Both the position numbers and the translations under genes were made by a program. From Candidatus Zhuqueibacterota bacterium (lineage in GTDB: Bacteria > SM23-31), in assembly GCA_042564455.1 (NCBI GenBank), contig JBHPLC010000002.1, positions 25,017 to 89,016 on the forward strand: a DNA stretch of 64,000 nucleotides, in the 5' to 3' direction. The first letter of the stretch is position 1. Each line of letters starts with the position of its first letter. Shown here piece after piece: positions 11,990 through 63,802 of the stretch. The notes under the pieces are model-generated. The model saw nothing but the letters and a program-made list of their open reading frames with translations. It did no database searches and was not told the DNA's origin.

Positions 11990-12015
11990 TCAAATATCTC
12001 CTCATTACAATCGGT

Positions 12016-14061: not shown

Positions 14062-14099
14062 AAATGAGCCGTTAACAAAAAATTATACGAATTTTAGAA

Positions 14100-15474: not shown

Positions 15475-15502
15475 TATATTTCTTTCTACCTTCCAAAAAG
15501 GA

Positions 15503-16576: not shown

Positions 16577-16621
16577 TTACATATATCCTACAACTCAAAA
16601 TGAGAATTATTTTCAATAATA

Positions 16622-17797: not shown

Positions 17798-17829
17798 AAT
17801 CGATATCTATAGAATTAAATAAATGTTTC

Positions 17830-18327: not shown

Positions 18328-18348
18328 ATATTTCTTATCTGTTAAATT

Positions 18349-18849: not shown

Positions 18850-18882
18850 TTAATCGCCTTCCCTGATACAGAAACAGAATAA

Positions 18883-45250: not shown

Positions 45251-45326
45251 TCCTCGGTAGCTCAATTGGCAGAGCGGGTGGCTGTTAACCACTAGGTTGT
45301 AGGTTCGAGTCCTACCCGAGGAGCCA
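45251..45326 (+). tRNA. tRNA-Asn (anticodon GTT), CCA encoded
   Basis: Acceptor TCCTCGG pairs with CCGAGGA. Anticodon loop is CTGTTAA. T arm is GTAGG-TTCGAGT-CCTAC. Discriminator G followed by CCA. Confidence 0.92.
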
Positions 45327-47480: not shown

Positions 47481-47948
47481 ATGAAATTCTGGAAATTAAT
47501 ATCTGATGAGATGGATAAAGTCGGGCTCAATAAGAAACGATTAGCTGATATGGCAGGTATGTCCCGATCTACTTTGAATGTATTAGAGCAGGGTAAAGAG
47601 CCTTCTCCAGATAACAGAATGAAACTTGAAGCAGCATTTGGTTATACAATAATGAAGAAAGGAAAAGATGATTATGAGTGGGATGCCAAAATATGGGATG
47701 CACAATCTGAAGAGGTTTTAAAACTTAAAAAAATGCCCGCCAATTATAGGCTATTCAAAAGTACACATTCTAAAGTTAATATTAGAAGAAAAGGATTAAT
47801 TGATTTTAAAAACAGTAAAGATTGGATGATTGCCAATATTTCTGATGATGAGGAAGAGTGGTTAGAGAGTATTTTCTTTCGGCCTGAAAAAAATCCATCG
47901 GCTGAAACATATAAAGATTTGTTACTGATATATAGAAAACTTCAATAG
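47481..47948 (+). CDS. XRE-family helix-turn-helix regulator
   Basis: 155 aa. N-terminal HTH_3 pattern (LNKKRLADMAGMSRSTLNVLEQGKEPSPDNRMKLEAAFG). RBS AGAGGAAA. Confidence 0.75.
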   Translation: MKFWKLISDEMDKVGLNKKRLADMAGMSRSTLNVLEQGKEPSPDNRMKLEAAFGYTIMKKGKDDYEWDAKIWDAQSEEVLKLKKMPANYRLFKSTHSKVNIRRKGLIDFKNSKDWMIANISDDEEEWLESIFFRPEKNPSAETYKDLLLIYRKLQ

Positions 47949-48087
47949 AATTATTTGAAGTTCTCGGCAAACATCTTAACGTTATGCCCACCTACCGGAT
48001 GAAGCACTGAAAAAAGCGGCAGATTTGGCTGGAGATATTATTAAAAGAGGTGGCGGTAAACGAAGGAAATAAAGAATAATAATCATT

Positions 48088-48121
48088 AACAATCCCTGCT
48101 CAAAAGGTGGATTTACGGACA
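48088..48121. repeat. 34-nt direct repeat block, copy A
   Basis: AACAATCCCTGCTCAAAA, 5 variable nt, then ATTTACGGACA. Same blocks and spacing at 48883-48916. Confidence 0.75.
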
Positions 48122-48221
48122 TGTATGAACATACGGGGACAGTAAATAGTTACAATTTTGATTATTATAATCATACCTCAAAAATTCTCTCACTTGTGAT
48201 AACCCTCATATGAACAACCCA

Positions 48222-48719
48222 TCAATTTTTATGATGTTTATCTGCATACTTCTCGATTACTATCCTGGCAGCATGTTCGGTGCTGCAACCTGATTTCACT
48301 AAGGTGAAAAATTCCTTTAGCATTTCTATCTCTTCTTTGAAAACATCTTTAACTTGAGCTATTCGGTCTCCTTGATACTGATGAGTTACTGGGTGCTTTG
48401 GATACTTGTGTTTTATCTTTTCCAGAAACTCCTGTTTTTCTGTCTCACTCTTAAAATCCATCTTTTCCCGAATCTCCAACTCTCTCCCTTTGGCAATTTG
48501 CTCGGCAACCAAGTACGATACAGTCGCCTGCATTCGCTCTTCTCCTTCTCCAAATTCTTCAACGTCTTTATTCCGCTGTTCTTCTGAGTAACTCAACACC
48601 GTGGACCAGTATTTCGTCATATTGTTTATGATAAATTCTTCTAACGTCATTTTATTAAATCCCGTAGATTTGCGTTTTGAAATTGTTGGAGTGATTGGAT
48701 TAAAAGTTAAGAAAAACAT
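48222..48719 (-). CDS. Hypothetical protein
   Basis: 165-aa ORF, charged/helical. The likely true start is the internal Met (MTLEEFIINN). No recognisable family. Confidence 0.45.
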   Translation of the reverse strand: MFFLTFNPITPTISKRKSTGFNKMTLEEFIINNMTKYWSTVLSYSEEQRNKDVEEFGEGEERMQATVSYLVAEQIAKGRELEIREKMDFKSETEKQEFLEKIKHKYPKHPVTHQYQGDRIAQVKDVFKEEIEMLKEFFTLVKSGCSTEHAARIVIEKYADKHHKN

Positions 48720-48811
48720 ATATCCTATACAAGTGTTTTTAAGTTCCTTCCTCTTTCAGGTTATATCTACACCTATATTTCTTCTTTCAATGCAGAGATT
48801 GTTTAATCACG

Positions 48812-48838
48812 CAAAAAAGACGGTTCTTACACCGTCTA
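48812..48838 (-). terminator. Rho-independent terminator for the giant-protein-1/peptide operon
   Basis: On the minus strand reads AGACGGT-GTAAGA-ACCGTCT followed by T6. Lies 125 nt downstream of the peptide stop. Confidence 0.65.
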
Positions 48839-48882
48839 TAAATTATTAAAAATTATATACTAAATATCTTAACTCAAATACA

Positions 48883-48916
48883 AACAATCCCTGCTCAAAA
48901 CATGTATTTACGGACA
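48883..48916. repeat. 34-nt direct repeat block, copy B
   Basis: See 48088-48121. TTACGGACA is additionally duplicated just downstream, at 48918-48926. Confidence 0.75.
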
Positions 48917-48962
48917 ATTACGGACATTCGCAGACAGAAAATGAGTATTTACTCATCATTTC

Positions 48963-49157
48963 TTATTTCCCGCCCTTTCTGAATGTCTGGAAGAGCATGT
49001 ATGCCATTAACACAATTCCATAGATTCCGGGATTGCCCCATGGGATCGTTCCCACCGGATTTACCGGAGGGCCGGGAGGCGCTTGGGCGAACAGCATTAA
49101 CGCTGACCCAAATATCAAAGCTGTGCCGATAACTAAATACTTTATAAGGTTTCTCAT
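48963..49157 (-). CDS. Conserved 64-aa membrane peptide: signal peptide, Pro/Gly-rich segment, TM helix, basic tail (copy 1)
   Basis: MRNLIKYLVIGTALIFGSALMLFAQA / PPGPPVNPVGTIPWGNPGIYG / IVLMAYMLFQTF / RKGGK. GGGAG RBS. Lies 17 nt after the giant-gene stop. 54/64 residues are identical to 54860-55054, and only synonymous changes occur in the central 23 codons. Confidence 0.8.
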   Translation of the reverse strand: MRNLIKYLVIGTALIFGSALMLFAQAPPGPPVNPVGTIPWGNPGIYGIVLMAYMLFQTFRKGGK

Positions 49158-49174
49158 TTATATATACTCCCAAT

Positions 49175-52100
49175 TTATCTTAAGAGAATTAATCTCATTG
49201 TTTTTGTATTGCTGCTCGAGATCAGTTTGTAAAAGTACATTCCGCTCGAAACATCCATGCCGCTGTTGTCCTTTCCATTCCAGACTACTTTATGATAACC
49301 GGCGGATTTTTCTGTATTCACGAGGGTTCTCAACTCCTGTCCCAGTGAATTATAGATAGCCAGCTTAACATGTCCGGTCTGCGGAAGTCCGAATTCGATC
49401 GTGGTTTTCGGATTGAATGGATTTGGAAAATTCTGTTTCAGTGTATAGTCATCCGGAATAACATCGTTTTCTGTTCTTGTGTCTTTGCTGAGAACGATCT
49501 TGAATCTTCTTTGCTCCAGTCCGTCATCTGCAAGTTTTTTGGTAAAATCTGTCGGATCATCTGCAAAAAGAACTGGACCCGGTGAAGATTTGGATGTTCT
49601 TGGAATGACGTTAAATGTGAAAGAACTGTTTTTCTGCATATCAATTCTATCACCAGTCAGTTCATCTATAAGCATAAAACCAAGCTCGCTATTATCAATA
49701 TCAGGAATATCCCAGTTCACAGTAACCTGACTGGATGAACTGTTGGTCATCACAATAAAATCCCATGAAGAGCCTTCATCACTGGATTTTCTGATGTCCT
49801 GTGTGTAATATCCCGGGTTGGTTTCCCAGCCGTTATGCGGAAATGACAGCGAGATGAATTCATCGTTTAGCGAAACCAGTTCGAACACGTCTCCACGGTC
49901 AAACCTTGGATCAGCCCAGTCAGCCATTCCGATATAATTGTGCGTGTCAATATTTTCACCGCTTTCTGCGGAAATCTTCATCCGCCAATCAAGCTCTAAT
50001 AATTCACCGCCGCCCATCTTGCCGACACCCGGATAGCTTATCGTCACTTCTTCCGCATCCTGGTTGGTGCGCACCCAGAAGCCGCTCCAGGGAGCTATGG
50101 TCGAAGTCAGACTGCCGCCGGGGAGTCCGTTGCCCAGGTAAAAATCATATTCCGAACCTGTCCAGCGGTAATATACGTTATCCATTCCGCTTCCCACGGC
50201 CACATCGTCATCCCAGTCTATGTCAACTCCGTAGGGATTGCCGAGCATATGCCAGCCGTTGGAATTTGTATAGGTTAATGTGCTGGTGATGTCCGCTGTT
50301 TCCTGAAGGCCGGTGACGTCCACATTAGACGGATCAAAAGCGTAAAGTATGTACCCTGTACCGTTTGATAATTCTGTCGGTATGACCCATTCACCCAATG
50401 CTTCGTTATATTCATATATATTGGAATTGTTGGTTTCGTACCTGAACGGGGCTATGTCGTCTGAGAAGATCGATACGGGATTGACCACGTCTTCAGGAGA
50501 GACAGGAAGGCTTATCATGCTCCACCCCGGCTGCATTATGGAGGAGGAAGTCGTATCGTTAACTTCGATGACACCGTAGATCGAGAAGTGGTTGATCTTT
50601 ATCTTGACGGTATTGTCAACGTGGTTTATGACATGGTCGCCTCTAACACGCTGCCAGATCTGTTTTGCGATATCCCAGATATGCACCCGCATATTTTCCT
50701 TTTTATTCTTGACCTCAAAATCCAGGAACTCCATCGTAAGCTCTACAGAATCCCTGAAGGTAAATCCGCCTTCGGATCCTTCAACAATGAAGCTTACTGC
50801 TGACGGACACTTTTCGAGTTCCGTTATTGGAATATCAGCTTCGGACGGCTGCTGCACAATAATGCTCTTGCTGCCTATAATCGCTCCCGGCGGGATATCA
50901 ACGGCATGTTTTGTGAATACACCTCCGGAAGATATCTGAACTCTGCCCCCTAATGATGAATTAACTGCTATCGTTGTATCATTGAATACTTTTTCGTTCT
51001 TTAAATTGCGGTCGGCTACCGTGATCGTAAGAGTTTCCGCCAGGGTTAGAACACCATCGGACACATAAAACACTACCGTATATGTTCCGGCGTGCAAAAA
51101 TGAAGGATTCCAGTGGAATTTGCCTGTGTTGACATTAAAAGAAGCTACTGCTCCCGCAGGAAGTCCACTCAAGTCCGCCCAGAAGGATAAATTGCGATAA
51201 TTGCCCAACGGTGAAGTTACCTGAAACTCTATTTCTTCGCCCTCTTTAGTTGTTTTATCACCTATATGATTAAATAAAAAATTGACTGAAAATACATTAA
51301 TTGCATCATCCACTTCTGTAGCAACATAAACATGCTTATTATCCGGACTAAGTTCAACATCAACCGGTCCGTCTAAATAAGTATATCCATCAACTTCATC
51401 ACGATACATCTCTATAAAATCTAATTCACCTGTCTCTCTGTTTCTGTTGAATACACTTACAGCGTCATCAGTACGACCTCCGACAATTAGTATTCCACCG
51501 TCGGGACTGACCTTTATACCACGCGCTCCCTGTAGGCCGGTCAAGCCATCCTGCTCGTCAAAATATGACTTAACAAATGTGAGCAGACCTGTGGTCTGAT
51601 CCCTTTTTAATAAAACTATTGCATGATCCCTCTGACTGCCGCCATAAAGAAATTTCTCGTCAGGACTAATTGTAAGGTCGGTTACATTATCCAATCCATC
51701 AACACCGTCAGTATTGTCAATAACAACTTGGATCTGTGTCAATTTGCCTGTTTCTTCATCTATTCTGAATACTGCAATAGCATCCCCTGCTAAACCTGCC
51801 TGATAAAGAAATTTACCGTCAGAAGAAATCTCATTAGAACCACCCCCTCTTAGACCCGATACACCATTCTGACCTTCCAGAAGAGACTCTACGAAAGTTA
51901 ATCTGCCTGTTGCTGGATTCCTTTCAAAAACTGCCATAGAGCCTGATCCTCCATAATTAGAAATATATAAAAACTTTCCATCAGGTCTCAAGTTGCTAGT
52001 ATGTGGTCTTGACAGGCCTGAAATACCATCCTGACCGTTAAAAAGAGTTTCTAAATAAGTGAGTTTACCTGTTTTATCATCTCTTGTAAATGCAGCTACT

Positions 52101-54526
52101 GCATTTTCATTTGTTGACAGTCCGGTGGCATAAATATTCTTACCGTCCTGGCTTAAAGTAAGATCCCAGATATCATTAATACCGAGAAAACCATCAACTA
52201 AATTTTGATAAGATTCAATATAGGTAAGTTCTCCTGTGCCTGGATTCCGGGTAAAGAAGGCAATGTTATCCTCGCTATTTCCTGTAACATAAACATGTTT
52301 GCCATCAGAACTAAAGACTATTTTGCCTGTACCATTTATACCGGAAGTTAATTTCTTTACTACATTACTGAATGTTAATGTTCCTGTTGAAGAATTTCTA
52401 ATAAATTTAACTATTGTATCATCGGTATAACCAGATACATAACAATTATTGCCATCATTACTTATAGCAAATTCATATGGATTATCCATACCTGCAATTG
52501 ACTGGAGGTTGTTGTAATATGAAGTTAAATAAGTTAATTCTCCAGTAGAAGAGTTTCTGGAAAATACTACCAATGCGTCATCAAACCGGCCAACCGCATA
52601 TAAATAATTACCATCCAAACTTACCTTTAGAAAAGGTATTGTATTTAGTCCGTGTATACCACCTTCATTATTGGTATAAATGTAGTTGTTAAATGTCAGT
52701 TTACCTGTACTGGTGTTTCTTGTAAATAAAGTTATTGCATTTCGTCCATTATCTGATACATATAGATGTTTGTCATCCGGACTAATATCCAAAGTTCTTG
52801 GAACATCCAAACCAAAAAAATCATTAATACCTTCTTGATAGATATCATCAAAAGATAGGGCGCCAGTTGAATTATCTCTGCTATATGCAATAACAGAATT
52901 TGCTGAAGTAACATAAATAAAAGACCCGTCATTACTGATTACAAAACCACGTGGCCCCTCTATGCCACCGGAGCCTCCAACACCACCAACAGTAGTACTG
53001 AATACAGAATTTCCTGCGCCAGCAATCCAGCCGTTGTTTGCGTCTGTAAAATGAACTCCTTTAAGCCCTCTATCAAAAGGATGTATCTGAGTAGTCCAGG
53101 TGGTTCCACCATCTGCTGTGTAGACTATAGCGCTTTGTATGCTATTATTAAACTCACCGACGTTTCCAACCGCCCAACCTTTATTAGAATCAGCAAAATA
53201 AATATCCCATAATTTACCGTCACTTGCAATAGGTATGGTTTGTGCGGTCCAATCTGTTCCCCCATTAGTTGTTTTAAGAACTGTACTTTCATTGCCGGAA
53301 ACCCATCCGACGGTAGAACTCGTAAAATGTATTCCACGAAGTTCAACGGATGTGCCGCTAGTCTTAACCGCCCAGTTGTCGCCTCCGTCTACTGTTGCCA
53401 GAATTGTCCCGTTATTCCCGACAGCCCAGCCGTTATTAGCGTCAGTAAAAAATACGCCAAAAAGGTCTTCAGAAGTGTTGCTTGTCTGTGTATTCCAGGA
53501 AGAACCATCGGTTGTTTTGAGGATAATACCACCGCTGCCGACTACCCAACCGGTAGTGCCGTTGAAAAAATGTACTCCATAGAAATCATTCCCTAAATTA
53601 GGATTTTGTGAACCCCATGAACTACCGCCATCAGTAGATTTAATTATTGTATCATCCGAACCTACGATCCACCCATTATCAGCGTCAACAAAAAATACAG
53701 CATTAAGACTACGACCTGTACCTATTGAATAAGATTCCCAACTGCCGCCGCCATCAGCTGTTTTAATTAGAAGATCATTTTCACCTATTATCCAGACAGT
53801 ATTTGCATCAATACTGAAGACATCAGCAAAAGCAGTATTTCCACTGGTTGGCAATTCAAAAGTGTTCCATTTATAATCATTGCCTATGGTCTCAACATAT
53901 GATAATCTTCCTGTTGAAGTATTTCTGTCAAAAACAACTACTGCGTCACTAACATAACCAGTCACATAGACATGTTCATTATCCGGACTGACTTTTATAT
54001 CTAAAGCACCATTAAGACCTGGAAGTGAGATGTCGTCATTAAAATGAGTTTCCAGATACGTTAATTCTCCTGTATTAGAGTTTCTATCAAAAACAACAAC
54101 TGCATCACTAACATATGCCGCAACATATAGATTATTCCCATCCGGGCTTAATGCAATATATCTTGGAGCATCCAATCCAGCTATTATACCAGTGTTATTT
54201 TGATATCTCGCTATATAGGTTAAATCTCCACTTGATAGGTCACGGCTGAAAACAGAAATATCATCAGACACATATCCCGCAATATAAACAAACTTATCAT
54301 CCGAACTGTTTACAATACTACGAGCACCATCCAGACCCGGAATCGAATGGATCTCGGCGCCTGTTTCGACTTCGACGAATTTTAGAAGGCTGCCCTTATC
54401 GGTTTGGGCGAATATAGCAAAATTTGTAATCAGTAAACTGACCAAAATGAATAGAATTATCCTAAAGGAAGATCTTGCATGTAACATATCTTTGTTCCTT
54501 ACATAAAAGGGAATAATATATTTCAT
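49175..54526 (-). CDS. Giant secreted surface protein 1: lactonase-type beta-propeller repeats, embedded Ycf48/BNR-like propeller, Ig-like domain, ZU5-like domain (HFS), T9SS-type C-terminal sorting domain
   Basis: 1783 aa; the probable start is Met14 (54487), followed by a signal peptide. Many repeats of the SPDG..LYV..y.sD.v.VF.R...TG.LT type. W.VG..G.I..T.DGG..W repeats lie at about 52985-53870. The ZU5-like block is at 50567-50959. The C-terminus NFPNPFNPKTTIEF...GMYFYKL...RLILLR is typical of T9SS type A sorting domains. Confidence 0.85.
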   Translation of the reverse strand: MKYIIPFYVRNKDMLHARSSFRIILFILVSLLITNFAIFAQTDKGSLLKFVEVETGAEIHSIPGLDGARSIVNSSDDKFVYIAGYVSDDISVFSRDLSSGDLTYIARYQNNTGIIAGLDAPRYIALSPDGNNLYVAAYVSDAVVVFDRNSNTGELTYLETHFNDDISLPGLNGALDIKVSPDNEHVYVTGYVSDAVVVFDRNTSTGRLSYVETIGNDYKWNTFELPTSGNTAFADVFSIDANTVWIIGENDLLIKTADGGGSWESYSIGTGRSLNAVFFVDADNGWIVGSDDTIIKSTDGGSSWGSQNPNLGNDFYGVHFFNGTTGWVVGSGGIILKTTDGSSWNTQTSNTSEDLFGVFFTDANNGWAVGNNGTILATVDGGDNWAVKTSGTSVELRGIHFTSSTVGWVSGNESTVLKTTNGGTDWTAQTIPIASDGKLWDIYFADSNKGWAVGNVGEFNNSIQSAIVYTADGGTTWTTQIHPFDRGLKGVHFTDANNGWIAGAGNSVFSTTVGGVGGSGGIEGPRGFVISNDGSFIYVTSANSVIAYSRDNSTGALSFDDIYQEGINDFFGLDVPRTLDISPDDKHLYVSDNGRNAITLFTRNTSTGKLTFNNYIYTNNEGGIHGLNTIPFLKVSLDGNYLYAVGRFDDALVVFSRNSSTGELTYLTSYYNNLQSIAGMDNPYEFAISNDGNNCYVSGYTDDTIVKFIRNSSTGTLTFSNVVKKLTSGINGTGKIVFSSDGKHVYVTGNSEDNIAFFTRNPGTGELTYIESYQNLVDGFLGINDIWDLTLSQDGKNIYATGLSTNENAVAAFTRDDKTGKLTYLETLFNGQDGISGLSRPHTSNLRPDGKFLYISNYGGSGSMAVFERNPATGRLTFVESLLEGQNGVSGLRGGGSNEISSDGKFLYQAGLAGDAIAVFRIDEETGKLTQIQVVIDNTDGVDGLDNVTDLTISPDEKFLYGGSQRDHAIVLLKRDQTTGLLTFVKSYFDEQDGLTGLQGARGIKVSPDGGILIVGGRTDDAVSVFNRNRETGELDFIEMYRDEVDGYTYLDGPVDVELSPDNKHVYVATEVDDAINVFSVNFLFNHIGDKTTKEGEEIEFQVTSPLGNYRNLSFWADLSGLPAGAVASFNVNTGKFHWNPSFLHAGTYTVVFYVSDGVLTLAETLTITVADRNLKNEKVFNDTTIAVNSSLGGRVQISSGGVFTKHAVDIPPGAIIGSKSIIVQQPSEADIPITELEKCPSAVSFIVEGSEGGFTFRDSVELTMEFLDFEVKNKKENMRVHIWDIAKQIWQRVRGDHVINHVDNTVKIKINHFSIYGVIEVNDTTSSSIMQPGWSMISLPVSPEDVVNPVSIFSDDIAPFRYETNNSNIYEYNEALGEWVIPTELSNGTGYILYAFDPSNVDVTGLQETADITSTLTYTNSNGWHMLGNPYGVDIDWDDDVAVGSGMDNVYYRWTGSEYDFYLGNGLPGGSLTSTIAPWSGFWVRTNQDAEEVTISYPGVGKMGGGELLELDWRMKISAESGENIDTHNYIGMADWADPRFDRGDVFELVSLNDEFISLSFPHNGWETNPGYYTQDIRKSSDEGSSWDFIVMTNSSSSQVTVNWDIPDIDNSELGFMLIDELTGDRIDMQKNSSFTFNVIPRTSKSSPGPVLFADDPTDFTKKLADDGLEQRRFKIVLSKDTRTENDVIPDDYTLKQNFPNPFNPKTTIEFGLPQTGHVKLAIYNSLGQELRTLVNTEKSAGYHKVVWNGKDNSGMDVSSGMYFYKLISSSNTKTMRLILLR
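50567..50959 (-). other. ZU5-like domain with terminal HFS motif (giant protein 1, residues ~1190-1320)
   Basis: GGRVQISSGGVFTKHAVDIPPGAI...CPSAVSFIVEGSEGGFTFRDSVELTMEF...MRVHIWD...W..V...VKIKINHFSIYGV. The H-F-S codons are at 50582-50590. Confidence 0.55.
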
Positions 54527-54859
54527 ATTCGGATATATGGATAAATAATCCGTTAATTTGTATTCATCCTTGATATAGTGAAGCTAAATGGGGGAATGCA
54601 ATCAGAACCTTAAAGTTCAAAATTTGGAAATATCACACAGAAATGCTTAACATATTTAAGGTAGAAAAATTATATCAAAAACAGACGCTTCCCTCCACCA
54701 TTTAATAGTTGATATTTTATTTTCGGCAGAATTTGACAATACTTTAGAAAATTTATATTATTTTGTGGTAATAGGGAGTGATTTTGTGATATCTGTAAAT
54801 AAAGTACTGTAAATGAGGATGGATCGGCAATCTTAAAGATTTTGTGGCAGAATTGGTAT

Positions 54860-55054
54860 TTATTTCCCGCCTTTTCTGAATGTTCGGAACAGCATGTATC
54901 CCATTAGTACAACTCCGTATATTCCGGGATTGCCCCATGGGATTGTTCCAACAGGATTTACAGGAGGGCCTGGAGGAGCTTGGGCAAACAGTGTGAATGC
55001 CATGCCTAATAATAAAGCTGTGCTGATAACTGAATATTTAATAAGATTTCTCAA
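54860..55054 (-). CDS. Conserved 64-aa membrane peptide (copy 2)
   Basis: TTG start with a GAGGGG RBS, 13 nt after the giant-gene-2 stop. MRNLIKYSVISTALLLGMAFTLFAQAPPGPPVNPVGTIPWGNPGIYGVVLMGYMLFRTFRKGGK. Confidence 0.78.
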   Translation of the reverse strand: MRNLIKYSVISTALLLGMAFTLFAQAPPGPPVNPVGTIPWGNPGIYGVVLMGYMLFRTFRKGGK

Positions 55055-55067
55055 TTTTGCCCCTCTG

Positions 55068-58000
55068 TTATCTGATCAATAATAATTTCATAGTATTGAA
55101 ATAATTGCCTGATGTTATTCTGTAGAAGTAAACTCCTGTTGAAACTTCAGTTCCGAGATCATCCCTACTATCCCACATTATCGAATGATAACCCGCCTGA
55201 ACTTCCGTATTGACGAGTGTTCGGACTTTCTGCCCCAATGAGTTGAATATCACAATCCTTGTTAGTCCTGATTCGGGTATTCCATATTCGATCTTTGTTA
55301 TAGGATTGAACGGATTCGGATAATTCTGATTCAGAAAATAACTTTTTGGGACTAATTTATTTGAATCCTTAGAGAGAGTGATCGTAAAATTCCGCGATGT
55401 TACATCATCAGCCGATACTTTTTGAGTAAAATTGGTCGGATCTTCCACCCTCTCCGGTGCAGCTTCGCCGCTTTTCTGCAGAGCAGGTTTGCTGAAAGAG
55501 TAAATATTTACTGACCTCATGTCAATAATTTCACCTGATGTATTGTCTTTCATGTAGACATTGACATCAGATTCAAGTTCCTCCGGTATCTCCCAGTTCA
55601 GACTCACAAGATCATTTGAGCTGTTAGTTGCGACATCAAAATCCCATGAGATTTCATCAGAATTCGGTCTTATATCCTGTGTCAGATTAGTCGAGTTATT
55701 CAGGAAGTAAAGCGAGATAAACTCATCATTCAGAGGTGAGAGTTCATAAATGTCATGACCATCAAAACCTGTGTTTGCATTCTCTGCAACACCGAGATAG
55801 TTATGCGAATCTTTAACATAGCCGCTCTGTGCGATTATCCTCATTCTCCAGTCTGGCTTCGTGGGCTTTGAAACACCTTTTTTGTTCAGTCCCGGATAAG
55901 AAATGGTCAGTTCCTCTGCATCCATCGTAGTGTGCACCCAAAACCCCTGCCATGTTGAGATGGTTGAAGTCAGGCCTCCGTCCGGGTAAAACTCATACTC
56001 TGAGCCTGTCCAGCGGTAATAAACATTATCTGTTAACGGGTCTAATGTTACATCTGTATCCCAGTCGATATCAACTCCAAATGGATTGCCAATCAGATGC
56101 CAACCATTCGAATTAGTGTATGTTAATGAATGTGTGATATCTGCTGTTTCCACCAGTCCGTCAAGATCAATATTAGATGGATCGAAAGCATACAGAATAT
56201 ACCCCGTACCGTTATTTACTGATGAGGGTATAATCCAATCTCCCGCTGATTCATCATAAGAATATATGCTCGAATTGTTGATCTCATATCTGAATGGGTA
56301 GATATCGTCACTGAATAGTGACACGGGATCAGTACTAACGTCAAGTGTTACCGGCAGACTCACCATTCCCCAACCGGGAGACAATGTAGTCTCCTCTTCG
56401 GCTATTGATACTTCCGCCACTCCATATATTGAGAAATGCGTTGTTTTAGTTCTAACGGTGTTATTGATCCAATCTATTATATGATTGCCGCGAACTCGTT
56501 TCCACATCTGTTTCGTCTTGTCCCATTCGTGCACTCGCATATTAGATTTATCACTTTTAACTTCGAAGTCTTTGAATTCAATTGTAATTTCAACCGAATC
56601 TTCAAAAGTAAATCCGTTTTCGCTTCCCTGAACAACAAAATCTATTGCTGATGGGCAATTTTCCAACTCCTCTAAAGGTATGTCATCTAAATTAGGGGGC
56701 TGAACAATAATAATCTTATCTTCAGGTAAGGCATTTGGAGGAATTTCAACCTTATGCTTTTTGTAAAATCCAGTAGTGTCAACACTAATTGTGCCACCAG
56801 TCTCTTTTTTGAAACTCTTTGTATTAGATGCGGCTAAGCCTTTGATAAAATCAGCCTTTACCACAGTAATGGTAATTGTTTCTGAATCGGAATAATAACC
56901 GTCTTTAACGGTAAAAGTAACTTGATAAACACCAGCAGATCCAATATGAGTATTCCATTTGAAAGTAGCTAAAGTTTTGTCGTTGTTTGATTTAAAAGAA
57001 GCTCCGGCTGATTGTGGCAAATTCTCAGATGATTTTGAATAACTTCGAGACAAAATACCATCATAATTAGAAGTTACATCAAATGAGATTTTCTCACCCT
57101 CTGTATAGTTTTTATCTCCAATTGGATTAAGTTCAAGGGTAGCATAGTATTCCAGAACAAATATCTTAAAAGAGGATTCTGATGCAGCTCCCAAAGTGTC
57201 CTCAGCGCAAACTACAACTCTGTGTGTGTCCATTTGAGAGATGTTTGGCTTCCAATTTATCTCTCCCGTTAATGAATCAATACTCATTTCGAGAGGACCG
57301 TCTGTCAGAGAGAATTTAAATAAATCTCCGTCAATATCTGACGCAGTAACCACTGTTATAATTGCCTCTCCAACACCGGCAGTTATATCTGATATAGGAT
57401 CAATTTCCGGAGGCTGGTTTACATGCAGCACTGTAATATCCAGAGTATCTGCATCTTCACCTCCAAAAATATCATTTGCCTTAATAATCAAAGAATAATC
57501 ACCGCTCTGCAAAAATGATGGGGTCCAGTTTAAATCACCAGTCGTGCTGTCTAATGTTAAACCATCTGGTTTTGATCCAGAGATTGAAAAAAACAGAGAA
57601 TCTGATTCTACATCTGTTGCTGAAACCGTTAAATTCAGAGTATCTCCTTCATTAACTGTCTGGTCCTGTATATTTACTATTACCGGATGATTGTTTATAC
57701 TCAAAGTGACAGGACGGGTATACAGTGTTAAATCAGTGGCCATTGTGTTGGTTGCCTTACATATATAAACACCTGCATCTGAAGATTGTAAAGAATCGAT
57801 TGTCAGGGTACTACTGGTTGCACCAGAAATATTCGAGCCATTCTTGATCCACTGATACTGGGTAGCAGCACCTCCAGCTGACACAGTTAAAGAAAGATTG
57901 GTTCCTATTGTGACAGACGTATCTTTTGCAGCCCCAATGCTGTCCTGAGGAGAGTAATTAATACCTGTAATTCCGACATTTGGTTCTATATCTTCGAAGG

Positions 58001-60071
58001 TGAAATTGTTATTATAAATTTTTGTTGTTGTTAAGTTGGCAAGACTTGATAGATCAGGTAGAGAATCGAATCTATTATCTTGAACTTCAAAAATTATTAA
58101 ATCAGACATATTAGCAAAGCCAACTGGAACACTACCATTTAAACCAGTATTATTCAGAAAAAGGAACTTCATATTAATCAAATTACCAATTTCTTGAGGA
58201 ATTTGACCTATGAAACTATTGTTATTCAGATATAAAATCTGGATATTAATCAAATTACCAATTTCTTTTGGGATAGTGCCCGTAAACTGGTTTGAAAACA
58301 AATACAAATTAGTTAAACTTGTCATGTTACCTATTTCAGGTGGGATTTGACCAGTTAGACTATTACTATTGAGGTTAAATGTTGTTAAATTAGTGAGATT
58401 ATATAATTCCGGAGGAATTGAACCACTAAGGTCATTGCCGTTAAGCCAAAGTTCTTTCAATTTTACAAGGCTGGCTAGTTCTATGGGTATAGTGCCCGAT
58501 AAATTATTTAGGTTTAGATATAATGTCTGTAAACTGTCTAAAGTACCTAACTCGGGTGGAATTGAGCCAGTTACTCCAGTACTTTGAATCCACAAATTTG
58601 TCAAATTTGTTAAACTACCTAGCTCGGGTGGAATTGAGCCAGTTAGACTAATATCACTAAGTGATAGACTTTGTAATTTCGTAAGATTACCTAACTCTAG
58701 TGGAATAGAACCCGTTAGACTATTATAACTAAGATCTAAACTGACCAAATTAGTTAAAGTACCTAATTCTGGTGGAATTGAGCCTGATAAACTATTATGA
58801 TCTAGACCTAAATAGGTCAAATTTGTTAAAGTACTTATTTCTGGTGGAATTGAGCCGATAAGATTATTGCCACCTAAATATAAGGTTTCCAATGCTGTAA
58901 GGTTGCCAATCTCCGAAGGCATGGTACCCGTTAGATTAATAGATGAAAGAAATAACATAGTTACTCTTCCAGAAGTTACAGTTACTCCAGACCAGTCTGC
59001 TACTGAATTCCCTGCAAGCCAATTTGTTTTATCTGTCCAGTTCGCGCCATCAGTTGAATTATACAAAGCAACGAGAGCAAGTGAATCAGTTTTGACACCT
59101 GTTGACCATGTTTTAACAGCACCGTAACCACCGGCTGTAGTTATCTGCTCCTCATTACTAGTGCTAACTTCTCGTGCCCAAATATTTCCACCACGGCTAA
59201 AAACAATAAAACTATCATCCGGAGACCATATACCATTAGTGGAACCGTTATCTGTTGTTAATTGTGCAACGTTTGTAGTATTTAAGTCATACGTGAATAA
59301 GTTTAGTGATGACGATGAGCCAAAGGTAAACAGTACTTTTGATTTATCGTTAGAGACAGTTGGATAATTTTCATAAAGTGTACCTGCAGTGGAACTCCAA
59401 AGCGTCTCAGATTGCGAACCATCTGTCTTCACTTTAAAAAGTGAACAGTCATAGGATGTTCTGTTGCTTCGTGCTGTAATTGCCCAATCGGAATCTATAA
59501 AGCTTCCTGAAGCATAATCGTAGGAACTTGATACTGGGTTTGGATTGAACAACGAATAGGTCAAGGTGTTAGTATTTAACATCCAAGCAGAACCGCCAGA
59601 ACCCCAGGGTTCAAAAGCGGTTACAAGTAAAGAGTCTCCATGCCAGGCTGTAGGCAAGCTTAGGTCGAGAGAGGTAGGCACCATAGCCGCATCAGTTCCA
59701 TCTGCGTCCATTATCCACACTTGATATCTAGAGGAAGTCGCGTTGGACATGAAAGCTATTTTTGTTCCATCTGGAGATAATACTGGATATCCAACTCCAC
59801 CGGAGGAAGGTGTATAGATTGTACTCTCATTGCGAGATGCCAAATCCATCTTTACAATACTTCCAGCCTTGACAAAATAGATATCACCAACTAGACTAAA
59901 TTGCCCATAGGTATTATTAGAAAGAAATAAAACTAACAGCAATATTACTATTCTTAATTTCACATTAACCTCAAGAATTGTATTATATTGTTTTATAATG
60001 AGTAGAAACAGTAAGTCATTTATTATCGGCATGAATATCAGTATCTTTAATGATTCCCATTGAAAATTCAA
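55068..60071 (-). CDS. Giant secreted surface protein 2: PD40/TolB-like propeller, plant-type LRR array, I-set Ig, cadherin-like/putative Ig domains, ZU5-like domain (HFS), T9SS-type C-terminal sorting domain
   Basis: 1667 aa as listed; the probable true start is GTG at 59963 (VKLRIVILLLVLFLSNNTYGQ signal peptide). About 12-13 24-residue LRRs (L..L..L.L..N.L(S/T)GSIPPELG.L). QYQWIKNGSNISGATSSTLTIDSLQSSDAGVYICKATN is I-set-like. The C-terminal ~590 aa are colinear with giant protein 1. Confidence 0.85.
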   Translation of the reverse strand: MNFQWESLKILIFMPIINDLLFLLIIKQYNTILEVNVKLRIVILLLVLFLSNNTYGQFSLVGDIYFVKAGSIVKMDLASRNESTIYTPSSGGVGYPVLSPDGTKIAFMSNATSSRYQVWIMDADGTDAAMVPTSLDLSLPTAWHGDSLLVTAFEPWGSGGSAWMLNTNTLTYSLFNPNPVSSSYDYASGSFIDSDWAITARSNRTSYDCSLFKVKTDGSQSETLWSSTAGTLYENYPTVSNDKSKVLFTFGSSSSLNLFTYDLNTTNVAQLTTDNGSTNGIWSPDDSFIVFSRGGNIWAREVSTSNEEQITTAGGYGAVKTWSTGVKTDSLALVALYNSTDGANWTDKTNWLAGNSVADWSGVTVTSGRVTMLFLSSINLTGTMPSEIGNLTALETLYLGGNNLIGSIPPEISTLTNLTYLGLDHNSLSGSIPPELGTLTNLVSLDLSYNSLTGSIPLELGNLTKLQSLSLSDISLTGSIPPELGSLTNLTNLWIQSTGVTGSIPPELGTLDSLQTLYLNLNNLSGTIPIELASLVKLKELWLNGNDLSGSIPPELYNLTNLTTFNLNSNSLTGQIPPEIGNMTSLTNLYLFSNQFTGTIPKEIGNLINIQILYLNNNSFIGQIPQEIGNLINMKFLFLNNTGLNGSVPVGFANMSDLIIFEVQDNRFDSLPDLSSLANLTTTKIYNNNFTFEDIEPNVGITGINYSPQDSIGAAKDTSVTIGTNLSLTVSAGGAATQYQWIKNGSNISGATSSTLTIDSLQSSDAGVYICKATNTMATDLTLYTRPVTLSINNHPVIVNIQDQTVNEGDTLNLTVSATDVESDSLFFSISGSKPDGLTLDSTTGDLNWTPSFLQSGDYSLIIKANDIFGGEDADTLDITVLHVNQPPEIDPISDITAGVGEAIITVVTASDIDGDLFKFSLTDGPLEMSIDSLTGEINWKPNISQMDTHRVVVCAEDTLGAASESSFKIFVLEYYATLELNPIGDKNYTEGEKISFDVTSNYDGILSRSYSKSSENLPQSAGASFKSNNDKTLATFKWNTHIGSAGVYQVTFTVKDGYYSDSETITITVVKADFIKGLAASNTKSFKKETGGTISVDTTGFYKKHKVEIPPNALPEDKIIIVQPPNLDDIPLEELENCPSAIDFVVQGSENGFTFEDSVEITIEFKDFEVKSDKSNMRVHEWDKTKQMWKRVRGNHIIDWINNTVRTKTTHFSIYGVAEVSIAEEETTLSPGWGMVSLPVTLDVSTDPVSLFSDDIYPFRYEINNSSIYSYDESAGDWIIPSSVNNGTGYILYAFDPSNIDLDGLVETADITHSLTYTNSNGWHLIGNPFGVDIDWDTDVTLDPLTDNVYYRWTGSEYEFYPDGGLTSTISTWQGFWVHTTMDAEELTISYPGLNKKGVSKPTKPDWRMRIIAQSGYVKDSHNYLGVAENANTGFDGHDIYELSPLNDEFISLYFLNNSTNLTQDIRPNSDEISWDFDVATNSSNDLVSLNWEIPEELESDVNVYMKDNTSGEIIDMRSVNIYSFSKPALQKSGEAAPERVEDPTNFTQKVSADDVTSRNFTITLSKDSNKLVPKSYFLNQNYPNPFNPITKIEYGIPESGLTRIVIFNSLGQKVRTLVNTEVQAGYHSIMWDSRDDLGTEVSTGVYFYRITSGNYFNTMKLLLIR
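56417..56807 (-). other. ZU5-like domain with terminal HFS motif (giant protein 2, residues ~1089-1219)
   Basis: GGTISVDTTGFYKKHKVEIPPNAL...CPSAIDFVVQGSENGFTFEDSVEITIEF...MRVHEWD...W..V...VRTKTTHFSIYGV. The H-F-S codons are at 56430-56438. Confidence 0.55.
58005..58945 (-). repeat. Tandem 72-nt coding repeats (24-aa LRR units)
   Basis: Repeated strings such as CTCGGGTGGAATTGAGCCAGTTA (about 58552 and 58624) and GGTGGAATTGAGCC (about 58769 and 58843) recur with 72-nt periodicity. Confidence 0.85.
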
Positions 60072-60211
60072 ATATTTTTTCTTGACGACATAGAAAGATG
60101 ATTAATATACTGCCAATTTTTCATGATTGATTAAATAATAAATATAAACTTGACAGTATCCGACAAAAAAAAGACGGTTTTTTCACCGCCTTTCAATATC
60201 AGGTATTTCAC

Positions 60212-60343
60212 CTAATTATCATCCAATCTAGCACGCCGTCTTTTCAAATCACCAGGTCGTTCCCTTCTCCGTTGTCCCGGTGGAAACAATCGCCATTTAA
60301 TGAGCCAATGGTAAAACTTTTCAATCAATTTGCTTCCAGACAT
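60212..60343 (-). CDS. Possible 43-aa Arg-rich small protein
   Basis: Its ATG overlaps the upstream stop (TAATG), and GGAGG lies 6 nt upstream. MSGSKLIEKFYHWLIKWRLFPPGQRRRERPGDLKRRRARLDDN. Below the ORF-track size cutoff; speculative. Confidence 0.25.
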   Translation of the reverse strand: MSGSKLIEKFYHWLIKWRLFPPGQRRRERPGDLKRRRARLDDN

Positions 60344-60813
60344 TATTTACCTCCGTTATTACCGTTTTTAACAAGTTTCATTTTTGAATTTCCGTTATCT
60401 GTATTCAGCTTCGACCACGCAAAACAGGCGTAGTGCGCCACTTTTTCTAGATCGTGCTCCTTATTACTCCCTGTGTGTAGCCTGATTGCATACTTAAGAA
60501 TGTTCCAGAGGCATGTCTCTATATCTGTCATCGTCATCAAATCAACTCCGTCATCCATCCCATACTTCTGCACCGTTCGCTCTTGAATATACTTTTCCAT
60601 GTGTTTAGAGAACTTCCGCCATTCTTCAACTCTGTCAATTGGTTCCTTGCCGTTGGTGTGACCATTATCCGGTTCAAAGTCTTCTCTCTCTATAACCGTT
60701 AAAGGGATGGCTTCCCAGTTCTCGGCATCAGGTTTCGTATCAAACTCTGCCAATAAATCCGCCTTCGCCTCTGTGTTGAGGTTATGATAGTAAATTTCAA
60801 ATTGTCGTGTCAT
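60343..60813 (-). CDS. Phage-associated hypothetical protein (C-terminus resembles the DUF3310 family)
   Basis: 156 aa. NILKYAIRLHTGSNKEHDLEKVAHYACFAW fits the K-Y..R...K....DL.KA.hY pattern seen in DUF3310-type phage proteins. Weak assignment. Confidence 0.4.
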   Translation of the reverse strand: MTRQFEIYYHNLNTEAKADLLAEFDTKPDAENWEAIPLTVIEREDFEPDNGHTNGKEPIDRVEEWRKFSKHMEKYIQERTVQKYGMDDGVDLMTMTDIETCLWNILKYAIRLHTGSNKEHDLEKVAHYACFAWSKLNTDNGNSKMKLVKNGNNGGK

Positions 60814-60828
60814 AAGATATTCCTTTTG

Positions 60829-61776
60829 TTAATTTAACAATGCGAGAATCTGTCCTCCTGTTTTCTGTAAATTGTATTGTGCAGCGGCAGTTAGCCCCTG
60901 AAATTTGGGTGCAGAAGTATATGCGTTTATCACAGAAAACATAGTATTTCCAGGCTCTGTCTCATATCCCCAAGACACTGCTGCTCTTTCATTTTCTGAA
61001 AGTTGAAATTGTCTGTTAAAAGTTTTAATCGTTTCAATCGGATTATCTACAGGCGTATCCAATGCTATCTTAAACTGTTTTTTATGCACGTTTAGATTAT
61101 CCAGGACTCTATTCATTACTTCTGGAAACTCTTCATTGATTTTCTCAGATAGATGCTTGCGCGAATATGATTCCTGTGTTTTATGAATTAGCCCATTTTG
61201 ACAAACAATCCGGTAGGTGTATGATGTTATTTTTATGGAACTGATCCCAGTTTCCGAATTAACAATTGAGGTTCCGGGAATGTACTTATCTTTCTTTATT
61301 TGAAACTGTTTCTCTTGATCGGGAATATTGATGGCCATGAGATTGTCATCAAACATAAATTCAACTGGTGCATCATTTTTGAGTCCATATTTTTCCAATA
61401 ACTCGATAATCTGAGTATTATTATATGGAACATATTTCTCAGTAAATATACTTCTGACGGAATCACCTTTGAACCGGAACAGTAAAGATTCATTGGTAAC
61501 ACTCTGCAGCCAATATTCCAGATTCTCTTTCTGGAGTTCCTCAGGACACCGTGAAATGTAATTGTGTGGAACGTTGCACCTATACGCCATAGATTTTTGA
61601 GCCATGGTCTTCATTGGATGAGTCTCTGATCCAATCTTAATTGAGTCAATGGAATTGAACGACAGGCTCCTTACAGGTATGACTTCATCTCGGCAATCTT
61701 TAGCATAATCTCTGACTTGTTCAGCGACTTTTCCTAATTTTGTTAGTTTTTTCATGTAATTTTCTCCTTTTGACAT
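60829..61776 (-). CDS. DUF932/DUF945-family phage/plasmid-like protein
   Basis: 315 aa. Overall pattern (HPMKTMAQKSMAYRCNVPHNYISRCPEELQKENLEYWL ... NSETGISSIKITSYTYRIVCQNGL) matches the family commonly found on ICEs and prophages. Confidence 0.6.
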   Translation of the reverse strand: MSKGENYMKKLTKLGKVAEQVRDYAKDCRDEVIPVRSLSFNSIDSIKIGSETHPMKTMAQKSMAYRCNVPHNYISRCPEELQKENLEYWLQSVTNESLLFRFKGDSVRSIFTEKYVPYNNTQIIELLEKYGLKNDAPVEFMFDDNLMAINIPDQEKQFQIKKDKYIPGTSIVNSETGISSIKITSYTYRIVCQNGLIHKTQESYSRKHLSEKINEEFPEVMNRVLDNLNVHKKQFKIALDTPVDNPIETIKTFNRQFQLSENERAAVSWGYETEPGNTMFSVINAYTSAPKFQGLTAAAQYNLQKTGGQILALLN

Positions 61777-61963
61777 TAATTTTCTGGATTTTCTAATTAT
61801 TTACTGCTGGTAAAATGTTGAATTGTATACAATTATGAGGGCTGACGCTTCCAGAGGAGAGCACTGACTCGTTCAGAAGCAGAAGAGTTTGATTGGAGGC
61901 TGACTCATCCTTTCACATTTATGACCACCTAACCTGAATCAACCTTACCCACCTAACTGACAC

Positions 61964-63802
61964 CTAACTGTCACCGGTGATTTCATCAAGGAAATGACTT
62001 TTCTTCGCTGGCTGGTTAAGATACGTATGTGTCCAACTGAGGTACAGCAAAGTCATTGCGCGGCTGCATCCAACAAAACAAATCCTTCTCTCTTCCTCAA
62101 TATCTCCCTTATTTGAAGGCATGATCCCTTCAACGAGGCCAGGGATCATAACCACTTGAAACTCCAAACCCTTTGCCTTGTGTATTGTCATTAGCTTGAT
62201 TCCGTCAGTGTCGGTAGCTGAAACATCCTTGAATGTGTCAACATACTGTAAGAACAGTTCAATAGAATTGTATTTTGCTCCCGCAAGAGTCAACTGATTG
62301 ATGTTATCTATCTTGGAATCGTCAGGAGTTGGAATATCATCTTCAGAAATAAATGCGTCATAATCCAATACTTCACGTAGAATCTGTAATGTCTCCGCAG
62401 GTTCAAGCTTGCCAACATCTTTGACCAGAGGTTCAATCAGTCTAATGAAATCTTTGACATTCTTCTTCTGATAAGGGAGTGTAATTGGCATGCTCTTTAA
62501 ACCTTCATACAGGTAGATATTCTGTTCGGAGGCATACTGTTCAAGTTCTTTGATAAACTTGCGACCTAAGTATCTTGTGGGTACATTTAGAACATGTAAT
62601 AATGATTCGTCACCCTCATCAGATAAAGGATTGTTAATTACAGTAAGATAGTCCAACAGAATTTTCACTTCCCGCCTTTGATAGAAATTCATTCCATTCT
62701 CAATTACATATGGCATCTGATTCTGCGACAGGTATTCTTCCAAAATTCTGGACTGAAAGTTACATCTATACAGTATGGCTATATCCGAATGCTTAAATCC
62801 CCGCTCCAGAAGTTCTTTTATCTCATTCACAATATTGATCGCTTCTCCTTCTTCTGATGATGATTCAATTATGATTACATCGTCGCCATCTTTATTCTCA
62901 GTGCGGAATTCTTTTTCTGTCCGTTTCTCATTGTGCTGAATAAGGTTCTGGCAGGCTTTCAATATCTGGGGAGTGCTTCTGTAGTTTAAGCTGAGAATGT
63001 ATTGTTTAACATGGGATGACAGGTTTTGAACGTCATACATCAAATCTGGGCGTGTCCCGGTGAATCCGTAAATTGACTGATCAGGATCGCCTACAACAAA
63101 AAGGCTTGAACCGTTGTCAGTATTCCCGGCAATTAATTTCAGTATTTCCATCTGTACAACATTAGCATCCTGAGCCTCATCCTGAGAAATATGAAGGAAT
63201 TTTTTCTGGTAGTATTGTCTTATTTCTGTATTCTCTGAAAGTAATTTATAAGCCTCAAGCAACAGATCGTCAAAATCATATCTCAGTTTCTTCTGTTTGT
63301 CTGATTCATATTCCTCATAAACCTGTGCGATTTTATCATAAGTTTTATCACCTGCATGGAGTATCTTAAATTCTGCGACATTAATAAGGTTGTTCTTAGC
63401 GAGTGAAATTTCTCTGAGAACCAATCCAACTGAAATATTTCTTATCCTTAATCTTTTTAATATGGTCTTAATGAATATTATCTGTTCTTTTCCTGTGAGA
63501 AGCTCAAAGACTCGTCCGGAATGTTTAAGTAGATGCAGACAGAAACTGTGTATTGTCATCAGTTTAACATGTTGCGCCTGTTCCTTAAGTTCTGGTTCAA
63601 GCCTTTCTTTCATTGTATATGCGGCGTTATTGGTAAAAGTGAGTCCAAGTATCTGTGTGGGATCAACGTCATGTTTTTGAACAAGATTACTGATTCGTCC
63701 GATTAACGTCCTTGTCTTTCCTCCTCCTGGTGGAGATTCTACAATAATGATTCCAGTATAAATTTGAGCGGCTTCAGATTGTTCTTCATTCAGTTCTATC
63801 AT
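61964..63802 (-). CDS. UvrD/PcrA-type superfamily 1 DNA helicase
   Basis: 612 aa. Strong RBS (AAAGGAGGT). Walker A SPPGGGKT, motif II DEAQD, motif III VGDPDQSIYGFTG, LNYRSTPQIL, TIHKAKGLEF, CFVGCSRA. Confidence 0.88.
   Translation of the reverse strand: MIELNEEQSEAAQIYTGIIIVESPPGGGKTRTLIGRISNLVQKHDVDPTQILGLTFTNNAAYTMKERLEPELKEQAQHVKLMTIHSFCLHLLKHSGRVFELLTGKEQIIFIKTILKRLRIRNISVGLVLREISLAKNNLINVAEFKILHAGDKTYDKIAQVYEEYESDKQKKLRYDFDDLLLEAYKLLSENTEIRQYYQKKFLHISQDEAQDANVVQMEILKLIAGNTDNGSSLFVVGDPDQSIYGFTGTRPDLMYDVQNLSSHVKQYILSLNYRSTPQILKACQNLIQHNEKRTEKEFRTENKDGDDVIIIESSSEEGEAINIVNEIKELLERGFKHSDIAILYRCNFQSRILEEYLSQNQMPYVIENGMNFYQRREVKILLDYLTVINNPLSDEGDESLLHVLNVPTRYLGRKFIKELEQYASEQNIYLYEGLKSMPITLPYQKKNVKDFIRLIEPLVKDVGKLEPAETLQILREVLDYDAFISEDDIPTPDDSKIDNINQLTLAGAKYNSIELFLQYVDTFKDVSATDTDGIKLMTIHKAKGLEFQVVMIPGLVEGIMPSNKGDIEEERRICFVGCSRAMTLLYLSWTHTYLNQPAKKSHFLDEITGDS

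Follow-up and report, generated by a model that had tools for sequence, protein, structure and literature searches.

On the minus strand of a 64,000-nucleotide stretch of contig JBHPLC010000002.1 from a Candidatus Zhuqueibacterota bacterium (the window), two genes, copy 1 at 48963-49157 (ACFL7D_00800) and copy 2 at 54860-55054 (ACFL7D_00810), each encode a mini-protein of 64 amino acids (aa) annotated as a hypothetical protein. By comparing the two copies with each other, with their homologues and with the gene neighbourhoods in which these occur, we arrived at a reading of the mini-protein as a dedicated exosortase substrate that exists only in this small form, namely a free-standing exosortase-type C-terminal sorting signal, functionally tied to the T9SS (type IX secretion system) cargo protein encoded immediately upstream. 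We give this reading a probability of roughly 0.6.

The mini-genes are real and constrained

The mini-proteins form a real, constrained gene family. The start codon is ATG in copy 1 and TTG in copy 2, and a Shine-Dalgarno-like sequence stands 6-9 nt 5′ of it in both (GGGAG at 49167-49171 for copy 1; GAGGGG at 55060-55065, 6 nt from the TTG, for copy 2). Ungapped comparison of the copies gave 34 nucleotide differences and, start codon excluded, 10 differing residues, seven of which lie within residues 8-21. Over codons 24-46 we counted eight synonymous and no non-synonymous differences (P ~3e-5), and over the mature part 13 synonymous versus three non-synonymous differences (binomial P ~4e-6); the ratio of non-synonymous to synonymous divergence (dN/dS, Nei-Gojobori) came to 0.125 over the entire gene, with 0.219 in the signal peptide and 0.054 in the mature part. 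A first-pass annotation of this DNA had reported the same 10 residue differences, seven of them in the signal peptide, and eight exclusively synonymous differences over a 23-codon stretch, and had concluded that these are real, constrained genes; its counts proved correct, and its conclusion is borne out by the dN/dS values and by some 25 homologues.

The mini-protein frame is the sole frame open in both copies, every other frame having a stop codon in at least one of them. The alternative same-strand frame at 48949-49173, which the first-pass annotation had named as the one that might be translated instead, is interrupted in copy 2, and the antisense frame, 81% identical between the copies, is interrupted in copy 1. 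Homologues from other genomes agree with the mini-protein frame.

At synonymous sites the mini-genes (pS, the proportion of differing sites, 0.46; dS ~0.7) have diverged much less than the adjoining cargo modules (pS ~0.77), whose synonymous sites are saturated in every 100-codon block (49178-51280 versus 55071-57131). Because the divergence of the mini-genes is so far below that of the modules, the mini-genes may have undergone gene conversion with each other, or their synonymous sites may be under constraint.

Architecture of a mini-protein family

The precursor begins with a predicted Sec signal peptide (residues 1-24, from hydropathy; 54983-55054 in copy 2, minus strand, as are the coordinates that follow) ending in ..LFA|Q. 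It continues with a proline-rich ectodomain, QAPPGPPVNPVGTI (residues 25-38; 54941-54982), that has the same residues in both copies, and with the signature motif P-W-G-N-P (residues 39-43; 54926-54940 in copy 2 and 49029-49043 in copy 1) at the membrane interface. A short hydrophobic segment, GIYGVVLMGYMLFRTF (residues 44-59; 54878-54925), is predicted to form a transmembrane (TM) helix and is followed by the basic C-terminal tail RKGGK (residues 60-64; 54863-54877). The segment of about 16 residues is moderately hydrophobic, with a peak of 1.65 on the Kyte-Doolittle scale (15-residue window, computed for copy 1).

Gln occupies position +1 after the predicted signal-peptide cleavage site in six of the roughly eight proteins that the window encodes for secretion, among them the two giant neighbours of the mini-genes (open reading frames (ORFs) with N-termini at 1802, 6403, 20065 and 23236, and those at 49175-54526 and 55068-60071). 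The pattern agrees with the Bacteroidetes "Q-rule", Gln at +1 after signal-peptide cleavage (PMC5837995, PMC10653852), and supports cleavage before Gln25 to leave a mature product of 40 residues, for which an N-out/C-in topology is predicted. The Q-rule thus seems to extend to this KSB1 genome, though it has been reported as not general for the Fibrobacteres-Chlorobi-Bacteroidetes (FCB) group. We also considered the peptide N-terminus as the amine nucleophile of a PorU-type T9SS sortase and judged this unlikely, because under the Q-rule the N-terminal Gln of the mature peptide is probably cyclised and because the ectodomain lacks Lys.

Neither the whole peptides nor their C-terminal fragments gave a significant match in Pfam or NCBIfam. 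A word-indexed search returned both proteins of the window plus a third paralogue, ACFL7D_11030, from the same genome (candidate division KSB1 bacterium), all annotated as hypothetical. An exhaustive hidden Markov model (HMM) search of 1.84 billion cluster representatives returned 15 proteins at E<=1e-3: the query, a spurious 285-aa protein and 13 proteins of 61-77 aa with a common layout. A second profile search together with locus scans brought the family to about 25 members, all unannotated, 61-77 aa long and from KSB1-like bacteria, and a back-translated peptide scan of GTDB genomes gave 62 pattern matches, none of which was confirmed.

The members share a signal peptide ending in ..FA|Q, a PPxPP stretch, the motif (I/V)-P-W-G-(N/D)-P, a short TM helix and, at the end, a basic tail such as RKGGK, KYKKKRHNSP, RRRRST or RKRRRQ. 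Alignment of 24 sequences gave the consensus ..FAQxPPxPPxxP(V)Gx(I/V)PWG(N/D)PxxY, followed by the helix and the tail. No substitution occurs in it at A24, P31, P34 or W40, and hardly any at Q25, P28 or P39; near-invariance of G41 was seen in an alignment of 16 sequences. Y46 and a mid-helix G-Y pair are conserved within the TM segment.

Likeness to C-terminal sorting signals

Eight attributes have been listed for tripartite C-terminal sorting signals (Haft, 10.1101/2023.06.07.544157, section 5), and the mini-proteins display six of them. Motif, TM helix and basic tail make up residues 39-64 of 64; the signal occurs several times in one genome, with three copies in that of the window (ACFL7D_00800, ACFL7D_00810 and ACFL7D_11030) and three in the metagenome-assembled genome (MAG) OZ252239.1; the motif contains the invariant W40 and the nearly invariant P39 and G41; a TM-like region follows, borderline for what should be strongly hydrophobic; the family tails provide the terminal basic cluster; and a predicted hydrophobic N-region ending in ..FA|Q, that is, a signal peptide, is present in all members. 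The seventh attribute, carriers that are otherwise unrelated, is absent, all carriers found being homologous mini-proteins of 61-77 aa, which is precisely what "free-standing" means. As to the eighth, homologues with no signal or with another one, mini-proteins at the same gene position in Bacteroidota carry the PID-CTERM signal, and their homology to the KSB1-type family is plausible (see below). The proposal of the first-pass annotation that a sorting-tag layout is encoded here as a separate mini-gene is supported.

A place in the WGxxGxxG-CTERM family (NF038039) was rejected: the window copies read WGNPGIYG, but the HMM does not match them and G44 and G47 are not conserved in the family. 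A reading of the mini-protein as the precursor of a ribosomally synthesised and post-translationally modified peptide was likewise rejected, modifying enzymes being absent from every locus.

Exosortase-family genes beside the mini-genes

Comparison of the genes neighbouring the mini-genes across loci (numbered with the prefix L) revealed two conserved membrane-protein genes beside the peptide genes in L004, L027/L028 and L029, each encoding a protein of about 180-200 aa, the first an exosortase-family protein and the second a partner membrane protein. The former belongs to the exosortase/archaeosortase superfamily (TIGR04178, 43.1 bits in L004, 41.7 in L027 and 34.1 in L029, with a cut-off of 23), while the latter shows a non-significant likeness to the XrtH-associated membrane protein (E 0.049). 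When HMMs were built from the two proteins, the same gene pair was detected directly beside the cassette in L020 and L008 too, which brings the total to five lineages. The exosortase gene is convergent and placed right after the peptide gene in L004, L027 and L020, follows it on the same strand in L029 and is divergent from the cargo gene in L008. Cys93 (within FGCTG), Arg134 and His153 are invariant in the five exosortases, and the corresponding cysteine of archaeosortase A is an active-site residue (PMC7157517).

Where a sorting system is dedicated, the genes for the enzyme and for its target typically follow one another or lie close together (10.1101/2023.06.07.544157, section 5). Such adjacency is seen in L004, L027/L028, L029, L020 and L008, and not inside the window; in OZ252239.1 one enzyme locus (L008) accompanies three cassettes. 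Co-occurrence with exosortase-like genes had been put forward by the first-pass annotation as a check on the sorting-signal idea, and the outcome in these relatives is positive. The two 406-aa ORFs that flank the L008 unit are unrelated to each other, and a composite transposon around it was rejected.

Scores against exosortase subfamily models were 27.8-56 bits for XrtH (cut-off 86), 45-49 for archaeosortase B (cut-off 150) and 38-42 for XrtX (cut-off 170), XrtM, XrtY, ArtE and XrtF matching with lower scores still. With no subfamily cut-off reached, these enzymes appear to form a new subfamily.

XrtH (exosortase H, TIGR04177) pairs with the IPTL-CTERM (IPTLxxWG) sorting signal. It is the best subfamily match of the L004 and L027 enzymes (49-56 bits), which are short (about 160-190 aa) like XrtH, and the mini-protein signature likewise has I-P...W-G just before the TM helix. 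In contrast to that system, the enzymes found here stay under the XrtH cut-off, the peptides do not match IPTL-CTERM, IPWG(N/D)P lacks the TLxx spacer, the only carriers are mini-proteins and the hosts are FCB-group or KSB1 bacteria in which the signal is linked to T9SS cargo. Searches of the literature for the substrates of XrtH, XrtX and XrtF yielded nothing useful.

Pairing with T9SS cargo proteins

A giant gene on the same strand precedes each copy, its stop codon lying 17 nt before copy 1 and 13 nt before copy 2. The partner of copy 1 (49175-54526) encodes a 1783-aa T9SS cargo protein containing lactonase-type and BNR beta-propellers, and that of copy 2 (55068-60071) a 1667-aa cargo protein with PD40, LRR and Ig domains. 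For the latter, the TTG listed as start codon, at 60071, probably lies upstream of the true start; about 37 codons further on begins a segment resembling a signal peptide, VKLRIVILLLVLFLSNNTYG|Q. Both proteins carry a T9SS type-A C-terminal domain (CTD; TIGR04183 Por_Secre_tail, 36.9 and 38.0 bits, cut-off 23), which is also present on the cargos of L003 and L004 (Pfam) and of L013, L017 and L018.

While the N-terminal parts of the two cargos are unrelated, their last ~700 residues are 53% identical and constitute a module at 49178-51280 in cargo 1 (type-A CTD at 49187-49429) and 55071-57131 in cargo 2, where a He_PIG Ig domain is followed by about 500 aa that match no family and then by the type-A CTD (55083-55322). 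Apart from one Ig domain and the CTD the module has no Pfam family, and a sequence search of the PDB found no relative. The same module, at 39-51% identity, ends each upstream protein wherever the contig permits reading.

A mini-gene lies downstream of a cargo gene bearing this module or CTD at 13 places. The intervening gap is 4-38 nt at 12 of them (the two in the window, L001, L002 and L008 from the closed MAG OZ252239.1, L003 from a second KSB1 MAG, L004 from JANQEH01, L020, L023, L025, L027 and L029) and about 260 nt in L030. Conversely, when the module alone was used as query, each full-length module recovered was followed by a peptide gene. The link to the neighbouring giant proteins that the first-pass annotation had suspected is hence supported by synteny. 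Mini-gene and cargo gene are predicted to be co-transcribed or translationally coupled, and a terminator-like hairpin with a T-run about 125 nt 3′ of copy 1 (48818-48837, minus strand) is likely the end of the transcript of cargo 1 and its peptide. Fusion of cargo and peptide by stop-codon read-through or frameshifting was rejected because the intergenic gaps (4, 12, 13, 16, 17 and 38 nt) do not preserve the frame consistently.

A comparable arrangement is known for T9SS cargo with a type-B CTD, where the gene of a cargo-specific PorP/SprF-like partner, thought to determine the surface anchorage of the cargo, adjoins the cargo gene (PMC9143113, PMC12618676). Those partners are outer-membrane beta-barrels, whereas the partner here is a 40-aa bitopic peptide and the cargo has a type-A CTD.

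The cargo genes of OZ252239.1 (L001, 5607-9988; L002, 7319-9988; L008, 5136-9980) are not continuous: each is broken up into two or three successive ORFs, of 793, 171 and 492 aa in one case. Frameshifted genes or pseudogenes, phase variation and errors of long-read assembly are all conceivable causes. Genes for PAS/HisKA sensor kinases and response regulators adjoin several cassettes (L003, 1-2709; L004, 9781-12463; L001, 3524-5101 and 12034-12597), the regulators near L003 and L004 being of the sigma-54 type, hinting at two-component control.

A parallel in Bacteroidota

T9SS type-A cargos encoded in Bacteroidota MAGs contain regions distantly related to the core of the module (profile positions ~250-480; 44-59 bits, E 1e-10 to 1e-14 at Z = 1e6), and in five of nine distinct loci such a cargo is followed by a mini-protein of 60-84 aa. 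The layout of the latter, signal peptide, AQ, PPxPP, a Gly-rich stretch, P(I/V)(D/G)GG, TM helix and basic tail, resembles that of the KSB1-type peptides, as does the position directly after a type-A cargo with the module core; the signature, with its Gly-rich insert, is different. The PID-CTERM model (NF046080, cut-off 26) scored 40.5 bits with the mini-protein of L017 and 24.7 and 22.3 bits, just below the cut-off, with L018a and L013; it matched none of the 24 KSB1-type members.

Profile-profile comparison (hhalign) of the KSB1-type and Bacteroidota families gave a probability of 96%. With the signal peptides removed the profile score was 26.7, as against 7.0 +/- 1.3 after column shuffling and 15.0 +/- 3.3 after segment-preserving shuffling, where 0 of 80 shuffles reached the observed value. 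On the basis of these profiles, homology of the two families is plausible.

In the Bacteroidota loci no exosortase was found within about 8 kb. NCBIfam lists PID_CTERM as NF046080, next to NF046081 for exosortase X and NF046083 for exosortase Y, and this closeness in number suggests that one of these two exosortases may be the enzyme to which curators assigned the PID-CTERM signal. The literature that we searched makes no mention of PID-CTERM or of a comparable pairing of cargo and mini-protein. In the Bacteroidales locus L018, two tandem PID-CTERM-like mini-genes (9050-9286 and 9435-9689) follow one T9SS cargo gene.

Proposed mechanism and alternative explanations

Exosortase, archaeosortase and rhombosortase systems serve here as the model: the precursor would be exported by Sec and cut before Gln25, leaving the mature mini-protein in the inner membrane, N-out/C-in, with the P-W-G motif at the outer face. 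An exosortase would then cleave at or near this motif (PMC7468200, PMC7157517, PMC3237569), and the proline-rich peptide of about 16 residues would be transferred to an amine-bearing acceptor, probably a lipid or glycan amine. The chemistry envisaged, a thioester intermediate resolved by an amine, is that of the PEP-CTERM/XrtA (EpsH) and PGF-CTERM/archaeosortase A systems (exosortase model, PMC7468200; thioester and lipid amine for ArtA, PMC7157517), with which the mini-protein system shares a Sec signal peptide, a tripartite tail and an enzyme of the same superfamily with conserved Cys, Arg and His. PEP-CTERM and PGF-CTERM tags are borne by many diverse and usually large proteins, whereas here the passenger is about 16 residues long and neither a PEP nor a PGF motif is present. 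Judging from synteny, the product or the uncleaved anchor may serve the co-encoded T9SS cargo; in the simplest form the conserved module would bind it as its tether or receptor, and the candidate module-binding peptide, in its pyroglutamyl form, is pGlu-APPGPPVNPVGTIPWG.

Carried further, these steps would describe coupled sorting systems, in which a new exosortase subfamily cleaves a mini-protein nearly devoid of passenger and joins the proline-rich peptide to a lipid or glycan, creating a dedicated surface anchor or receptor, covalent or non-covalent via the 700-aa module, for giant T9SS type-A cargo in KSB1 and, with PID-CTERM mini-proteins, in Bacteroidota. We consider this extended scheme less likely than not.

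Several observations weigh against a free-standing exosortase signal tied to T9SS cargo. Neither an exosortase nor a partner homologue was detected in the 64-kb window, nor in the flanks of L001, L002, L003 and L023 (~6-10 kb), L006 and L007. Two family members lack a preceding cargo gene: P0005 in L007 sits after a divergent amidase gene, and P0022 in L006, a divergent "PWNSELL" variant, has 178 nt of readable upstream sequence with no ORF in them. The hydrophobic segment is short and borderline. The KSB1-type peptides matched none of PEP-CTERM (TIGR02595), IPTL-CTERM, PID-CTERM and WGxxGxxG-CTERM even at E<=10, so that of the likeness to PEP-CTERM-like classes noted by the first-pass annotation the tripartite layout is retained, and membership of a curated sorting-signal model, PEP-CTERM included, is not. 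The mini-protein tag does not act as a general sorting tag, since no larger protein bearing it was found, short local matches on large proteins falling below significance in the search used. Finally, an AlphaFold2 model of the module (alignment of six sequences) reached a mean pLDDT, the predicted per-residue confidence, of 47.9, with only the first Ig domain confident, and was too poor to use.

The main rival explanation is a stable membrane tether, in which the mini-protein is never cleaved, remains bitopic in the inner membrane and holds or escorts the cargo in the periplasm through its proline-rich ectodomain before T9SS export, the nearby exosortase acting on other substrates. Close pairing of cargo and peptide at 13 places would be expected of such a tether, the conserved TM residues (Y46 and the mid-helix G-Y) suggest specific helix contacts, and several cassettes have no exosortase nearby. 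PRiMA and ColQ, the anchors of acetylcholinesterase with a proline-rich attachment domain, offer an analogy: a large soluble partner is tethered there by a protein that combines a signal peptide with a proline-rich stretch, one TM helix and a short basic tail. These are eukaryotic proteins with no detectable homology to the family, the Pfam PRIMA1 match being weak and non-significant (E 2.3). We nevertheless hold the uncleaved tether to be improbable: exosortase genes are rare, yet adjoin the mini-genes in five independent lineages and in three gene arrangements, those loci yielded no other candidate substrate with a tripartite tail, and the conserved motif stands exactly where exosortase-type signals have theirs.

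A weaker rival accepts the mini-protein as an exosortase substrate and takes the released proline-rich peptide for a signal or matrix component unrelated to the cargo, the synteny reflecting co-regulation or co-mobilisation. The stand-alone copies in L007 and L006, the putative mobile island around the window cassettes and the two-component regulator genes near several cassettes would all fit such a product. We consider it quite unlikely, because module and peptide occur together wherever the upstream protein is readable, down to about 40% identity between modules, because the pairing recurs in Bacteroidota with a different sorting motif and because the gap is 4-38 nt at 12 of the 13 places. 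That there is no functional protein at all, the ORFs having arisen by chance or an overlapping frame being the translated one, is effectively refuted: the genes are short, compositionally simple, annotated as hypothetical only and accompanied by the 81%-identical antisense frame, but their dN/dS of 0.05-0.13, the stop codons in every other frame and the homologues in other genomes, about 25 at the protein level with the same frame and the same gene position, all speak against it.

Significance

Tripartite sorting signals and exosortases are already known as a kind of system. What appear to be new are the (I/V)PWG(N/D)P signature, a signal confined to mini-proteins with almost no passenger, and an exosortase subfamily that stays under every curated cut-off, in a unit linked to T9SS cargo. 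The catalogue gains a protein family so far without annotation and, probably, a new class of sorting signal, (I/V)PWG(N/D)P-CTERM. Exosortase/archaeosortase systems and the T9SS have so far been treated as separate routes to the cell surface, and the compact, recurrent four-gene unit of T9SS-CTD cargo, mini-substrate, exosortase and partner membrane protein offers a genetic handle on possible cross-talk between them. To our knowledge, the acceptor of exosortase substrates in bacteria has not yet been established, and we know of no clear explanation for the retention of type-A T9SS cargo on cells without anionic lipopolysaccharide (A-LPS) of the Porphyromonas type. A minimal exosortase substrate, sorting signal plus about 16 residues, is chemically tractable, since the 40-mer can be synthesised and traced by mass spectrometry.

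Genomic context of the window

A gene for a large serine recombinase (45292-46938, minus strand) has a tRNA-Asn gene (45251-45326, plus strand) directly at its 3′ end, and genes for a helix-turn-helix protein, DUF3310, DUF932 and a UvrD-like helicase surround both cargo/peptide cassettes (47481-63802). Because of this junction and these neighbours, the cassettes probably lie within an integrated mobile island; an attR repeat derived from the tRNA-Asn gene was not found inside the window. Elsewhere in the window, a tRNA-Sec gene (1411-1504) adjoins an ORF for the C-terminal part of SelB (124-1308), and the organism therefore uses selenocysteine. The complex I (nuo) operon occupies 9003-19317 on the minus strand, and two paralogous M28 peptidase genes lie at 6403-8493 and 20065-22125.

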